NCBI GenBank assembly: GCA_010093815.1
Contig: ML996566.1
Source: Pseudovirgaria hyperparasitica
Lineage: Eukaryota
DNA: 64,000 nt
Strand: one strand, 5' to 3'
Part shown: positions 23,794-30,978 of the stretch, in pieces
Position numbering within the stretch: position 1 is the stretch's first letter
Layout of the letters: every line of letters starts with the position of its first letter
Program-made: the position numbers and the translations under genes
The notes under the pieces: generated by a model
Told to the model about the DNA's origin: nothing
Seen by the model: the letters and a program-made list of their open reading frames with translations, nothing else
Databases searched by the model: none

Positions 23794-24149
23794 TGTGAAG
23801 ACTAAGAGTGGGACGGCTATACACCAGACCCAGTGTCAGCTAGCACAGTCATTAGCGTGCGGCGGCTCTAGTACCTGGGCGCCTTCACGCCGACTGGAAC
23901 TGGTTTGGCGCAATCAGCAAATCTTGCTAGGTTGCTCTCGAGACCAACTGCTCGAGCGTTCCTCGGTACCTCTTGGGTGCTGGAGCCTGTGGTATAAGAA
24001 ACCCCCAGCTCCAGCCGTTCTCTTCTGTTTGTCCAAGAGTTATCATTACACACCCTCGTTCAACTCCAACTCCATATCCACCTGCTATACCAATCCAACT
24101 TTCGTCAGCCAACACTCCAACTTTCGTCAATCAACCGCCATCCATCAAA

Positions 24150-24674
24150 ATGCAGTTCAAACTTGCCTTCGTTGCTTTCGCCGCCTGCGTTGCCGCTGTC
24201 AACGTCCAGCGTGCTATCGACCCGTACGCATCTGCCCTCTCTCTCCCAAATCAATTTGACTCGCATACTGACTCGGTACACAGAGCCGTTCTCAACGAGC
24301 TGTCCCACGCCATCCCCAAGCAGCTCCTCGAGCGTGCTGTCTCCGACCCATCCGCCCTTGAGGCCGAGTTCGCCAACGGCAACCTTCCTCGCTGGTACCA
24401 GGAGCTCCCAGCTGATGCTAAGAGGTCTCTCAAGGACCTCGGTGCTAAGATCGTTGTCCGCCACGATGCTGCCTCTTCCGCCTCTGGATCCCCATCAGGC
24501 TCTGGTTCATCCGTGATCCCCTCTGGCACTCCCACTGGCGGCTCACCAACTGGTGGTGCCCCTACCACCACTGGCGGCAGCGGTGCTCCTACCTCCACTG
24601 GTGGCGCCTCGTCCAACATGGTTGGTGCTGGTGTTGCTGGTCTCGCTGCACTCGTCGGTATGGTCGCTTTGTAA
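24150..24674 (+). CDS. Small secreted, probably GPI-anchored Ser/Thr/Gly-rich cell-surface protein
   Basis: Signal peptide MQFKLAFVAFAACVAA; PRWYQELPADAK motif; S/T/G stalk; hydrophobic C-terminus (..GVAGLAALVGMVAL). Probable 60-nt intron 24224-24283. Confidence 0.85.
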   Translation: MQFKLAFVAFAACVAAVNVQRAIDPYASALSLPNQFDSHTDSVHRAVLNELSHAIPKQLLERAVSDPSALEAEFANGNLPRWYQELPADAKRSLKDLGAKIVVRHDAASSASGSPSGSGSSVIPSGTPTGGSPTGGAPTTTGGSGAPTSTGGASSNMVGAGVAGLAALVGMVAL

Positions 24675-25483
24675 GCAGTTTCATGGACGGCGTTGCTCTA
24701 ACCGAGCATTTGTATGTATTGGCTATTGCGTGGTCTTTGGACGTCACGTGTGGACGGCATATAGCAGGTCTTGCATAATATATGGGTCATGGTGTGAATG
24801 GATAGAGGTTTATTAATATGTTAATGATACTCCAGTGACCATGAGCACTATTCTTTGCAATCTACATCTTGCGCCTAACCCTTAATCTACACAGGTCAAT
24901 TGAAACACCGTGCTTGGTTCCAAATAATGCGCCCTACCTAGTTGCCACGAGTATGTGTGGGTACAATGGCGCCCAAGGCTCCTACCTTGTTGAGGCATTC
25001 AGTTCCAATGCTCGTAGGCGCAATGTGGTAAAAACTATCGGGTACTACAGGGAAATCATCGGACTCGCCCAGCACCGAGCCACGTATAATTGCCGTGTCA
25101 GTTGAATGTTTGCTCCTGCAAGTAGTTATTTCGACACGAATATCTCTATCGAAAAATGAAAGGTTTGGTTGTGTCCGCATGGATTTGCAGTTGTGTATCT
25201 CGCACGGTCGCTAAATGTTTGACGCTCCTGACCTGCAGTAGCGGCAGACCAAGCCAACGTCATGGGAATTGTATCCATTCATCGTCGTCATCGTGGAGCT
25301 GCGCAGGACTCGCGCTGGAACAATGCACATTGATGTCTACTTTTCACATAACCTAGGTAGCATCCATCAGACTCGCCACAGCTTCAGTGGGCTGTGACAT
25401 AATACCGTCGTCATTGCGTCCCATCCGCATTCGGTAAAACCTGGAGGCGTGGCCTTTCGGTAGGAGCAAGCTCTCGTACAAGA

Positions 25484-26595
25484 ATGTCGTTTCGCGCATC
25501 ACGCTCAATGGCCTCTGCTACTTCAAGATTATCGTCATTATCGTTCCAACTGACAGCTCAGCCCTCTGCGCGAACTTTCGGTCACCAACAAGTTAGAATG
25601 GCAGGTCAATATACACAGCTCAAGCTCAACACTGGTGCTACAATTCCGGCCGTTGGCTTTGGGACTTGGCAAGATAAGGAAGCCCAGGAACCAGCTGTTA
25701 TCGCTGCCCTCCAAGCAGGATATCGTCACATCGACACCGCCCGCATGTGAGTGTGGCATATCTGTGCTGTCATCGTCGTCACTGATATCACTCAAGCTAC
25801 GGCACGGAAGGAGCCGTTGGCAACGCTATCAAGCACTCTGGTGTTCCTCGCTCGGAGATATTCCTCACCACTAAGTTATGGAACAACAAGCACCACCCGG
25901 ATGATGTGGAAGGAGCTCTTGACGCATCGCTCAAGGACCTCGGCACAGACTACGTGGATCTGTATCTGATGCATTGGCCTAGTGCCTTTGCTCGTAGTGA
26001 GAAATCATTTCCCAAGGAATCAGATGGCAAGACCAACGCGATCGCTGACATTGACTACGTTGATACATACAAGGCCATGGAGAAGCTTCTCCAAACTGGG
26101 AAGACAAAGGCCATTGGAGTTAGCAACTTCTCCCAAGCAGAAATGGAGCGACTGCTCAAGGAGACAAGTGTCGTCCCTGCAGCTCATCAGATGGAGATGC
26201 ATCCATGGTTACAACAAAAGACTTTCGCGGACTGGCACAAATCGAAGGGCATCCACATCACCCACTACAGCCCCTTCGGAAACCAAAACGAAATATATGA
26301 CAGCGGTAAAAACATTAGCAAGCTGATGGATGATCCCGTATTGGTCGAGATTGGAAAGGCACACGGTAAGACTGGCGCACAGGTTGCTCTAGCTTGGGGA
26401 GTCACGAAGGGCCACTCTGTCATACCAAAGAGTAAGACGGAGTCTCGCATCAAATCTAATCTTGAGGGAGATTTCAAGTTGAGTACTGATGATCTAGAAA
26501 AGATCGATGGGATCGACAAGAAATTGAGATTCAACGATGCAAGCTCTGGGTTCCGCTATGAGTTCTTCTCGGATCTTGACGGGAAGAAGCGGTAA
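25484..26595 (+). CDS. Aldo-keto reductase (GCY1/YPR1/GldB-like NADP-dependent)
   Basis: LNTGATIPAVGFGTW, GYRHIDTARIYGTE, IFLTTKLWN, DLYLMHWP, IGVSNF and IPKS. Intron 25747-25796. Confidence 0.92.
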
Positions 26596-26966
26596 CTCGG
26601 ATGCACCGATTTAATGTGTAGGAAATGTGAGAGGAGATGCTAGAATATGTGGGGAGATCGTAAGATTAGAGCTGAAGTGTAGCGGGATGTAAGAATATGT
26701 AGAAATAACGTAGGTGCATGTATGTTGCCATTCTATCATGCACGCAGAGACTTGATGCTGTACTATTTCAGATCTCAAATATTATGTCCGTGCATCGGGC
26801 GCGCATCGGCAAGCCGAAATTTGCGTGTGCTTAAACTTCGATTTTTTCCAGCTCTCACATTCTTTCTTTCCACACGCCAACATCGAGGGACAATTCTTTC
26901 CACCGCACGCACTCCAGTTTCCTTATTTTTTCTTGTAAGTACTCTCACATCTTTTACTTCCCTTAG

Positions 26967-27039
26967 ATGATGACCATTACATGAACAATCCAAAGCCTAC
27001 AGCATCATGAAGGACCTTCTATCTCTAGAATTACCCTGA
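26967..27039 (+). ncRNA. Box C/D snoRNA, U45(SNORD45)-like: guide for 18S A156 (human Am159); second guide to the 25S A-loop region
   Basis: C box ATGATGA 26967-73; D box CTGA 27036-39. Guide CTCTAGAATTACC (27023-35) is the exact complement of 18S GGUAAUUCUAGAG, and D-5 pairs the second A. TGAACAATCCAA (26982-93) complements 25S UUGGAUUGUUCA. Confidence 0.85.
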
Positions 27040-27201
27040 TCGTGGTTACGAGTTGTGCTCAACTTACAAGACAATCTTCAATTATTATAACTGACTAATG
27101 AACAGATAGACATCTCCAAGACATGATATCACTCACTGGCCATGACTCTTCAATTCAATAAAAGGTCAGTCGGAAATAATTCTTTTCTTGCACCCGTTGA
27201 A

Positions 27202-27286
27202 GTGATGACATCGAGACTCGGAAAGGCATTCCTCGACCTGAAGATAATATGTTGATCCAGTCGCAATTAGTTTCAGCCTTGTCTGA
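27202..27286 (+). ncRNA. snR41: Box C/D snoRNA snR41 (18S Gm1126 guide)
   Basis: C GTGATGA 27202-08, D' CTGA 27238-41, C' ATGTTGA 27249-55, D CTGA 27283-86. Guide AGTTTCAGCCTTG (27269-81) complements 18S CAAGGCUGAAACU with D-5 on G1126. Confidence 0.88.
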
Positions 27287-27401
27287 TCTTTTTTTAACCC
27301 ACCCTGCATTGCTGAAGATCACTGCTTGCAAACTTGAATCTGACAGCTCTTCTCTAGGTACACCTCATCTTCACCCCCAACAAATATCGTTACGCATCCA
27401 T

Positions 27402-27526
27402 ATGAGGAATTCTTGACGAACGGGCGGACATATTGTGCATACCTTGATCGGCATCTATCAAAACCAAGGCGTACAAACCTTGCAGCTGTCAGGATGGGAT
27501 ATGCTTGTTGAGAACTCGTCACCTGA
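27402..27526 (+). ncRNA. snR70: Box C/D snoRNA snR70 (18S Cm1639 guide)
   Basis: C ATGAGGA 27402-08. ACGGGCGG (27420-27) complements 18S CCGCCCGU, with a degenerate D' (CATA) placing D'-5 on C1639. D CTGA 27523-26; terminal stem GCATC/GATGC. It lies between snR41 and snR51, as in the yeast cluster. Confidence 0.78.
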
Positions 27527-27644
27527 TTGATGCAATGTGTCGACGACCTGTGTCTTGAGAATACAAGAGCATATCATGCTAATTCAGATTCTCACAGGTA
27601 TAATCTCCCTACTCGTTGCGTGTACCACGTTGGGCGTCACCTTT

Positions 27645-27793
27645 ATGATGATTCTTCTATTCACACTGTTTGATCGAGCAATTCTGTAACGAGAATTTCT
27701 TGAACTGATAGTTAAAACACTGAAAATTCTGATTTAATGAGGTATGTGCGGAATTCGCGGGTGCAATGATACATGCTAATAGTGGCAGCCTGA
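27645..27793 (+). ncRNA. snR51: Box C/D snoRNA snR51 (25S Um2729 and 18S Am100 guides), split by an internal intron 27742-27788
   Basis: C ATGATGA 27645-51. TATTCACACTG + D' TTGA (27670-73) targets 25S CAGUGUGAAUA. CTGATTTAATGAG|C + D CTGA (27790-93) targets 18S GCUCAUUAAAUCAG only after splicing. Confidence 0.88.
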
Positions 27794-27942
27794 TATATCC
27801 TTGACGGTCCCCCGACTGATCTGCTTACGATATTCGTGAAAGACAATGGCTAATATTTTGCATGTTGTCAGGTAACGTCGATCACCAACCATAAATGTGA
27901 TACATCTTCGTAAGTCGCTACCAGAACTCTTTCCTCCGGCAC

Positions 27943-28025
27943 CTGATGAGCAAAATATTCGCTGTGTTCTTTCTGAACAACCTTGAAGAGCAAAATATAC
28001 TTAATAATTCACTTTGGAGAACTGA
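27943..28025 (+). ncRNA. Box C/D snoRNA with guides to 5.8S A43 and to the 25S GGUCUCCAAGGUGAA site (U55/SNORD55-like target)
   Basis: C CTGATGA 27943-49. TTCGCTGTGTTCTTT (27958-72) + D' CTGA complements 5.8S GAAGAACGCAGCGAA (G-U pairs allowed). C' TTGAAGA 27983-89. TTCACTTTGGAGA (28008-20) + D CTGA 28022-25 complements 25S UCUCCAAGGUGAA. Confidence 0.82.
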
Positions 28026-28954
28026 TTGTATATTTTTACTTGTTCCGATTTCAGCAATACGATCTTGTGCATCCTGCTGACTTGAATGTAGAATGCTCCT
28101 TGGAAACCGTTACAAACGAAACTGCTGTAGAACGCCGTATGCACAATTAAACAGCTATGAATAATAATATACATAACTTTACAAGTGTCTTTTATCGAAA
28201 TCATGATATGTTAGTGCAAGAGCCTCATGTGTCCTTGCCTCTGCTGCATTGAGGTAAAGTCTCTCTAGTGACACGCAGAGACGACTTCCAGCCTTTCGAT
28301 ACTGCACGCTGCGATCCCATAGCGGGCCACTACTATAGTCATATGGAGTATAACCCAGGCCTAGACGATGATTATAATGTCAATATACAAGCCGTGCAAG
28401 CGGGTCCGCAATCGTAATTTGCCAGTCAAAGCACCCACAGAAGCACATTCTTCAACTCACTAACTCCTCCACCACCATGATACCCAGAGATGGACTGCCC
28501 TCATACCCCTTGCCCCTTCCACACACCCTTCCCCTCCCTACACACTGCACGCACGCACTCTCAAACAAAACTCCCAGCTCTCTAACTATGGCACAAATAA
28601 CCTGTCCAAAAACCAGCTCTCCAAGACACAGCACCTCGCTCTCTCCTCACCTCACTCCCACCCAAATCATACACCCCGTACACACCTTATACACGCAGCC
28701 TTTGCCCATGTCAGCTTCTTCATCTCGCTCTACGTCTACCCCTTTTTCATTGTTCTGTTTTTCATTCTCCGCGTCTCTTTCGCCTCTCTTCTAGAGCTGT
28801 CTGATCCGGTCTGACCTGATCTGGTTCTACGTTCGAGAAGATGTTTTCCTCAGTCGCGGATCCCCACGTCCAGAAGGGGAGGGAGGAAGGGAGGGAGGAG
28901 CGGGCTAGAGGGCGTGCGGTGTTTGGTGTGGTGTGCAGAACGGAGAAGGAGATG

Positions 28955-29225
28955 GAGAGGGAGAGGGAGAGGGAGAGGGAGAGGGAGAGGGAGAGAGAGA
29001 GGAACATACGCGGGACTGGGAAGCCACTTAGTAGGATGTGTAGTTGGAGATGTAGCTGGAGAAGCTTTGTGTGTATGTGTGTATATGTAGTAGAGCTAGC
29101 TAGCTAGCTAGCTGTCTGTCTGTCTGTGTGGCATTCCATGGGGATGTACTATGTACTATCTGGACAGGTATGTATGTAGATAGATATTCCCATACGCCAT
29201 ACACGCAAACACGCAAACACGCAAA
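28955..29225. repeat. Microsatellite cluster: (GAGAGG)6(GA)n, (TAGC)n, (TGTC)n, (ACACGCAA)3
   Basis: Read directly; lies in a low-complexity intergenic region. Confidence 0.9.
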
Positions 29226-29829
29226 GACTCATACACACATACATGCACGCAGTGTACTCTATCTATCCATAGTACCATGATAGCCCTTCTTGAAACGCCA
29301 ACTCAGCAGTTGCAAAAAGACCCCAAAACGTATCTCAAACATTGTATCATGTTCAATATGCGTTCGGTGCGGGAAATTTCCGACTGTATACCCACCCATG
29401 GTCGTGCTGGAAGGAACGTTGAACAATATGCCTGGGGACATTGGGATGGTGGGTACGTACCGAGAATCGACCACCACGACGAACTGTAACAGTAGTACCT
29501 CGGAGCACGTAATAGGCGGCGCTGTGCAATGCTGTTTATACACTCACGTCAGGCATTCACACGAATTGTACTAACAATGTCTAGACAAATATGAGATTCG
29601 GCAAGGGGGTAAGAAATAGGTTCTTGCGAAATTGAAGACATATTGACACGTTCCCGTTCATCCGTAGATGCTTTTGATTTACATGATTTTCGCAATCCCT
29701 CTAGCATGGGCTTCTCTGATTCTTGTGCTATGCTGCACTCCGAGCTAATACGAATGCTGTTCAGTGTTCGTATGATCATTGCTCGAACTTGGCAAAGCTC
29801 CGCATGTATCCTTCTGCGCCTCTTTACAT

Positions 29830-30978
29830 CTAGTAAACCTTCTTTTTCTCGTCCACACTGAATTGACCGGGTCCCATATTCACGAGGAGAAGAAGACCGC
29901 CCCTAACAGAGTTAAATTCGCCAATTGATCGTGGTACTGAGGATCACTTACACGATAGACAGGATCTGGAAAAAATCGTACTTCGCAAAGTCCTTGTGGG
30001 GGTGATGTGGGTGAAGCTGATATACAGATTAGCGCGCAGCCCAACTTCATAGGTTTTGATGACTCACGGTCCAGAAGTTGTTCACAATCAGGTTGAAGAT
30101 GCTAAGGATCAAAACCAGCATGATCGCGCTCCATTTCGCCTTGAAACCGACCACAACCATGACACAGGCAACAAAACCAAGAAGGCTCACGGTAATTCGC
30201 CAGATGCTCCAATCACCTCGGAACACAAAGCCAATGAAGAGGAAGATCAGAAGGACACGTCCAGCGAGCTGGAAGTACATCTTGCGGTCCTTTTCGTCGA
30301 GCGTAGGAAGACCGGCCGGGGCAAATCGCTTGCGCACCCAGGAGTCGGAGAGCACCATGAGAAGACCGCCCATCACCGACAGGTTTCGTAGAAAGAAATT
30401 TAGGTCGAACACGAGACCGTAGCCGATGCCTTGGAGGATCACCACACCAATCAAACCTCCGACCGCGTATTCCGAGTATTTTCTTCCAATGATGAGGATC
30501 GAGCAAGATGTCATTGCGATAACGTTTATGATGAGGAACAAGTGTGTAACGCCGGACCAGACTGTTACAATCTGTTAGCTGACCGTAAGCTTTGTTGCAC
30601 GTCAATTCGTACTCTTTCGGTAGTCTTTCAAGTAAATCAGTTGGTCGTTCCATTGCGTGATGATGCGCAGAGCATCTTCTAAGAATGTTACTACAATCAG
30701 GAATCGGCCAATTGCTGGCAGGTATCTGGATGCCGAGAGCGTGTCAGCATATGTCCTGTCTAGATCTCGTCGCGAGCTGTTCACGAGACAATAGAGCTGT
30801 GTGCTACTCACGGTTTGATGGGATCCGAGAAAGTGTCTAGCCAGTCTTCAATCTTGCTGGTCTGCTCGCGAATAGCAGCCAGCGGGCTGGGGTCGTCGGT
30901 TGCGTCAGTCCTGCTTGGTCCACCGAACGGACTCTGATTGCCCAGGTGATAGCCTGCGGTGCCCCGTATTTGCGCCAT
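29830..30978 (-). CDS. ERV29: SURF4-family ER cargo receptor
   Basis: [72 protein letters not shown] (di-lysine ER retrieval). Four introns reconstructed. Confidence 0.95.

Follow-up and report, generated by a model that had tools for sequence, protein, structure and literature searches.

Abutting snoRNA introns and a nested intron in a fungal snR41-snR70-snR51 host gene

Introduction

The snR41-snR70-snR51 polycistron of S. cerevisiae is cut by the RNase III Rnt1. The closest described counterpart of the locus analyzed here is cluster III of Luo et al. (2013, PLoS One 8:e58547; PMC3596301), in which snR41, snR70, and snR51 were followed in 14 euascomycete species. The text of that paper reports an intron-intron-intron structure with 5'-to-3' intermediates in "all Euascomycete species" studied, two introns inserted next to it, A (U45-associated) and C (U55-associated), and a snoRNA-less intron B between the antisense element of snR51 and its box D. 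The 42 EST products described there comprise 18 from which intron I had been removed, 14 that had lost introns I and II, and 10 that had lost all three. Stepwise splicing or alternative acceptor use was offered in explanation (PMC3596301).

Comparable arrangements have been described in other fungi. Nested and recursive splicing of Candida-clade snoRNA polycistrons was reported by Donovan et al. (2016; PMC5033589), whose text cites Mitrovich et al. for C. albicans and Luo et al. for D. hansenii, in which the exon between snR41 and snR70 has zero size. The same text gives the snoRNAs of Saccharomyces clusters I and II as exonic. A zero-nucleotide exon is also on record for the BOT1 gene of Cryptococcus neoformans (bioRxiv 10.1101/224170).

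Results

The window, that is, the whole 64,000-nt stretch of Pseudovirgaria hyperparasitica DNA that was analyzed (contig ML996566.1), holds a non-coding host gene of the filamentous-ascomycete type on the + strand, spanning about 26900-28150. The locus is a fungal snR41-snR70-snR51 snoRNA cluster plus two extra snoRNA introns. The three snoRNAs are present in that order on one strand, the identity of snR70 being the weakest link. Apart from the snR51 region and one small exon, which are listed where they are discussed, the features are as follows; X1 and X2 are the two runs of contigs described below.

26935..27105, + strand: intron A, 171 nt; donor GTAAGT; joint 26934>27106 in an X1 contig
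~26964-27043, + strand: box C/D snoRNA in intron A, from a script search; C box ATGATGA at 26967, D box CTGA at 27036
27106..27164, + strand: exon 2 of the host transcript, 59 nt; bounded by joints 26934>27106 and 27164>27358/27598/27872
27165..27357, + strand: intron I, 193 nt; donor GTCAGT; branch CTGAC, with the A at 27343; acceptor TAG
27198-27288, + strand: snR41-type snoRNA Afu_455, in intron I; Rfam RF01860, 56.3 bits (gathering score 48)
27358..27597, + strand: intron II, 240 nt; weak donor GTACAC; branch GCTAAT; acceptor CAG
~27395-27535, + strand: snR70/SNORD43-type C/D snoRNA, in intron II; C box ATGAGGA at 27402, D box CTGA at 27523
27598..27871, + strand: intron III, 274 nt; weak donor GTATAA; branch GCTAAT, with the A at 27853; acceptor CAG
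27910..28091, + strand: intron C, 182 nt; donor GTAAGT; branch GCTGAC; acceptor TAG; joint 27909>28092 in both runs
27939-28028, + strand: snoRNA Afu_294, in intron C; Rfam RF01506, 67.3 bits (gathering score 43)

At the gathering threshold Rfam recognizes Afu_455 and Afu_294 only; the snR51-like and SNORD43 matches come from relaxed searches. The match to SNORD43, a member of the snR70 clan, covers 27397-27447 and is weak (13.6 bits, E value of 2.6). Spliced introns with C/D snoRNAs flank the cluster on both sides. Rfam names the downstream snoRNA as Afu_294 and leaves the upstream one nameless, finding no significant family for the snoRNA of intron A (best score, 15 bits). In the text of Luo et al. 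(PMC3596301) the intron at the position of intron A is U45-associated. For snR70 and U45, the identification relies on position, the Rfam matches being weak or absent.

The third "intron" of the initial annotation is a nested pair. Intron III carries the snR51-type snoRNA, and within that snoRNA, directly after its 3' guide, lies intron B, which the annotation had overlooked.

27641-27741 and 27789-~27797, + strand: snR51-type C/D snoRNA, in two pieces; C box at 27645, box D (CTGA) at 27790-27793
27742-27788, + strand: intron B, 47 nt, no snoRNA; strong donor GTATGT; branch GCTAAT; acceptor CAG

Box D of snR51 adjoins the guide ...GATTTAATGAG only once intron B is removed. On the unspliced DNA, the Rfam snR51 model (RF01214) matches 27641-27744 with 40.2 bits, below its gathering score of 44, and the alignment ends at the guide, without box D. 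We attribute both the break and the shortfall in score to the displacement of box D by intron B. Contigs without intron B still retain intron III in both runs, and in X2 also intron II; intron B is therefore removed first, leaving before intron III and setting box D beside the guide. Among the matches listed from related loci (see below), all 47 distinct loci contain intron B, with a length of 45-64 nt, and a box D follows it in all 47 (CTGA in 46, CCGA in 1). Two further candidates in this stretch, a short extra C/D snoRNA at 27763-27825 and a fourth ratchet point at 27741/2, were rejected: intron B (27742-27788) is spliced and restores the snR51 box D.

Three AG/GT motifs (the slash marks the splice boundary) lie where the initial annotation had placed them: CTGAC..TCTCTAG/GTACAC at 27357/27358, GCTAAT..CTCACAG/GTATAA at 27597/27598, and GCTAAT..TGTCAG/GTAACG at 27871/27872. 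The intron II donor GTACAC directly abuts the AG of intron I, and the intron III donor GTATAA directly abuts the AG of intron II. An alternative donor, GTAAGT, was confirmed at 27910. Across 26860-28150 there are 5 AGGT words against a shuffle mean of 3.5, a number that is not above chance; their placement is non-random, with 5/5 at splice junctions (27163, 27356, 27596, 27740, and 27870). Each of the three motifs had been described as a boundary between two snoRNAs. The first two are, and the third separates snR51 from a 38-nt exon.

RNA evidence comes from assembled contigs of the two runs, X1 and X2, both from one sample of one study. Their kind is not on record, and we treat them as RNA-derived because GT..AG introns of neighboring coding genes are skipped in them (24224-24283, 25747-25796, and one on the minus strand at ~29900-29950) and because adjacent genes are orders of magnitude apart in contig depth. 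The contigs were placed on 24000-30000, with splice joints set by a "cut +2" shift that gives GT..AG. As single-sample assemblies, they lose rare forms, and neither order nor lariats are visible in them. The following segments of the host gene are removed.

26935-27105 (intron A): joint 26934>27106; X1
27165-27357: joint 27164>27358; X2, depth 58
27165-27597: joint 27164>27598; X1, depth 202
27165-27871: joint 27164>27872; X1, depth 550
27742-27788: joint 27741>27789; both runs
27910-28091: joint 27909>28092; both runs

Exon 2 (27106..27164) is the 5' exon for all three abutting introns. The initial annotation had proposed to look for intermediates that join 27164 to 27358, 27598, or 27872, and all three are present in the RNA-derived contigs. 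With exon 2 joined to each of these positions, the exons at the first two junctions have a length of zero. Of the three ratchet points that the annotation had proposed, those at 27357/8 and 27597/8 stand, with both the joints and a conserved GT (see below); at 27871/2 the 38-nt exon is kept.

The annotation had also allowed for micro-exons of 10-11 nt, which would be left if the AGs whose last bases are 27346 and 27587 were real acceptors. Both AGs exist in the sequence, but the branch adenosines are only 3 and 5 nt away, and no contig joint in the two runs uses either of them. The final product joins 27164 straight to 27872. We consider micro-exons extremely improbable.

Several contigs also bear on the surroundings of the host gene. 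One X1 contig (24663-27164) runs from the aldo/keto reductase gene upstream (Pfam PF00248), past the 3' end of that gene, into host exons 1 and 2, and the X2 contig of the reductase gene ends at 26758. The joining of the two genes in X1 may reflect read-through or an assembly merge. At the other end, an X2 contig ends at 28145, where Illumina adapter-like letters follow, and no depth at all is recorded for the bin 28221-28421, so the host transcript probably ends between ~28145 and 28220. Beyond the host gene, low-complexity repeats occupy 28850-29230, comprising GGGAGA/GAGAGG, CTAG and CTGT runs, and ACGCAAAC repeats; 28872-29136 was skipped as repeat in contig placement. Farther upstream, a very highly covered transcript at 24161-24844 (contig depth of at least 13,000) contains the 60-nt intron 24224-24283, and a 129-aa ORF piece of this transcript has no Pfam match.

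Related loci were collected by scanning metagenome contigs with a pattern made from two snR41-type guides, which gave at least 111 loci, at least 80 of them with 1500-nt flanks. Among the matches listed, the order snR41-type, snR70-type, snR51-type, Afu_294-type is shared. The snR70 guide core CGGGCGGAC provides an anchor in 110 of 112 sequences (the window plus the 111 matches listed) and yields 84 distinct spacers. At the first boundary (snR41/snR70), all 84 distinct spacers among the matches listed have a branch motif followed by AG/GT, compared with 4.3/84 after shuffling, and 81 of the 84 contain a single AGGT. These spacers, again among the matches listed, form 60 clusters at an identity of at least 80% and 43 at an identity of at least 70%; that of the window clusters with no other. 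For the second boundary (snR70/snR51), 73 of the sequences listed contain the snR51 anchor, 59 of them distinct. Inspection by eye finds AG/GT in 58/59 distinct sequences among the matches listed and AG/GC in the remaining one; under a strict branch-distance rule 50/59 pass, the failures being cases in which the branch motif directly adjoins the AG or ends in an unusual base.

Loci L016, L017, L030, L051, L069, L073, and L078 differ in spacing. Their Afu_294-type snoRNA lies ~1000 nt or more past the snR41 motif (usually ~700), and the usual anchor in the snR51 3' guide is absent, a pattern that points to an additional insertion or to divergence of snR51.

The third AG/GT has a different role. 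In these contigs it is the start of a small retained exon and no ratchet point.

27872..27909, + strand: exon, 38 nt; begins GTAACG; joints 27164>27872 and 27909>28092

This outcome had been anticipated as an alternative in the initial annotation: the RNA retains the 38-nt exon and is spliced from the GTAAGT donor at 27910 (27909>28092, both runs). A joint 27164>28092, skipping the exon, is absent from the contig joints, which drop rare forms. For the relatives we used a simple count of branch-qualified AG/GT motifs, which replaced a "first branch-qualified AG" rule that had picked wrong sites. Among the matches listed, 21/44 distinct spacers have such a motif (shuffle mean, 5.5), and 19 of these 21 have a consensus-type donor ~37-46 nt beyond it. 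Conservation of AG/GT, which the annotation had named as a check, extends over the first two boundaries and to only these 21 of 44 spacers at the third. From sequence, a small exon that starts with GT after intron III appears to occur in relatives above chance, yet not universally. The GT start of this ~40-nt exon might permit optional exon skipping in some lineages.

We also compared the bases that follow the GT at the abutting donors. These positions were not fixed by site-finding, and the lineages are related, so the contrasts are descriptive and are not probabilities. All counts are among the matches listed.

A at +3, distinct sequences: first boundary 76/78; second boundary 46/48
G at +5, distinct sequences: first boundary 12/78; second boundary 18/48; intron B 46/47
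G at +5, one per 70% cluster: first boundary 7/43; second boundary 11/32; intron B 28/29

GTACAT is the most frequent hexamer at the first boundary (24/78, among the matches listed). In the window, the abutting donors GTACAC and GTATAA are without a G at +5, and the six other joint-confirmed donors all have one.

Discussion

In our judgment the locus is very likely a euascomycete-type cluster III host gene with one snoRNA per intron, in which the exons between the central introns have been lost and the snoRNAs are released stepwise. Two exons would formerly have separated the three central introns, and their loss would have left AG followed by GT at 27357/8 and 27597/8. The strong donor at 27165 is spliced to 27357, as the contig joint records, and this places exon 2 before GTACAC. 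The junction of exon 2 with GTACAC would act as the next donor, to be spliced to 27597, and the junction of exon 2 with GTATAA would then be spliced to 27871. Each step would free one lariat with one snoRNA, which would be debranched and trimmed to a snoRNP, and removal would proceed from 5' to 3'. Downstream of intron III there is a normal 38-nt exon and then intron C with Afu_294. The core of the original idea, a spliceosome that releases snoRNAs by recursive splicing, is upheld at two junctions and abandoned at the third; the re-splicing itself we infer.

A single donor (27165) used with three acceptors (27357, 27597, and 27871) also predicts the observed pattern, in which exon 2 is joined to three places. 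The shorter products would then be dead ends, and nucleases would free the downstream snoRNAs from long lariats. The weakness of the abutting donors, which lack a G at +5, fits this explanation, and the text of Luo et al. (PMC3596301) offers the same reading of the ESTs. However, the GT at the abutting sites (84/84 and 58/59 of the relatives, among the matches listed) and the A at +3 would be left unexplained, with the next positions varying, and internal cuts would be needed in any lariat holding two or three snoRNAs. Exonuclease trimming normally gives one snoRNA per intron. The conserved GTA after the AG, to be expected of sites in use as donors but not of mere alternative acceptors, argues for their use as donors, which favors stepwise re-splicing over one donor with alternative acceptors, and we regard the use of a single donor as improbable.

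Alternatively, the introns could be independent neighbors, each recognized on unspliced RNA and removed in any order, with the 5'-to-3' series reflecting the order of transcription. Each abutting donor has AG at -2/-1 whether or not the upstream intron has been removed (TAG/GT or CAG/GT versus AAG/GT), and given AG in both contexts, U1 pairing would change little after upstream splicing. Neither a joint 27357>27598 nor loss of II or III with I retained occurs among the contig joints of this one sample, which is weak evidence, since contigs drop rare forms. According to the text of Luo et al. (PMC3596301), downstream-only loss was also absent among the 42 ESTs and by targeted RT-PCR in yeasts. 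Independent recognition therefore seems to us very improbable.

Within the preferred reading, stepwise re-splicing of exon 2, it is conceivable, if rather doubtful, that selection keeps the abutting donors of the zero-length exons weak. A weak abutting donor could enforce strict 5'-to-3' removal. It could prevent U1 binding and the recognition of the preceding 3' splice site from interfering with each other, and it could fire only after ligation to the upstream exon. If this idea is true, the cluster is a natural system for the hand-over of the spliceosome between introns. The conserved weak-donor pattern is a concrete handle for a mutational test.

The S. cerevisiae cluster has the orthologous snoRNAs in one transcript, without introns; they are released by an endonuclease, with no spliceosome involved. 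The zero-nucleotide exons of animals and Cryptococcus have juxtaposed 3' and 5' splice sites and an intermediate with the upstream exon at the ratchet point (bioRxiv 10.1101/224170 for the Cryptococcus case). In the window, too, a 3' splice site is directly followed by a 5' splice site, and the contigs include both the intermediates and the final product. Whereas animal recursive splicing subdivides very long introns of coding genes, the segments here are 193-274 nt long and hold one snoRNA each.

The Candida-clade polycistrons described in the text of Donovan et al. (PMC5033589) are also non-coding transcripts with one snoRNA per intron. They have exon sizes of 1, 0, or "negative", and RNA-seq evidence of ordered removal is reported for them. 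In these yeasts introns may share a G, and so be nested, whereas the boundaries in the window are clean AG/GT.

The closest match is cluster III as given in the text of Luo et al. (PMC3596301). Shared with it are the order of the snoRNAs, the two missing interior exons, intron B within snR51, the flanking snoRNA introns (A and C), and the three 5'-to-3' intermediates. Nothing essential differs from that description. The architecture is real, ordinary for filamentous ascomycetes, and already known (PMC3596301), and the window adds only another species to an organization published in 2013. Beyond that text, we contribute counts for the third AG/GT (21/44 of the relatives listed) and for the G at +5. 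The consistent weakness of the abutting donors is the only possibly new item: no remark on it was found in the passages of Luo et al. drawn on here, and the figures and supplementary tables of that paper may bear on the point and may already give the donor sequences. The locus offers a clear, naturally occurring case of a spliceosome employed to release snoRNAs, with exons shrunk to nothing and one intron inside a snoRNA.
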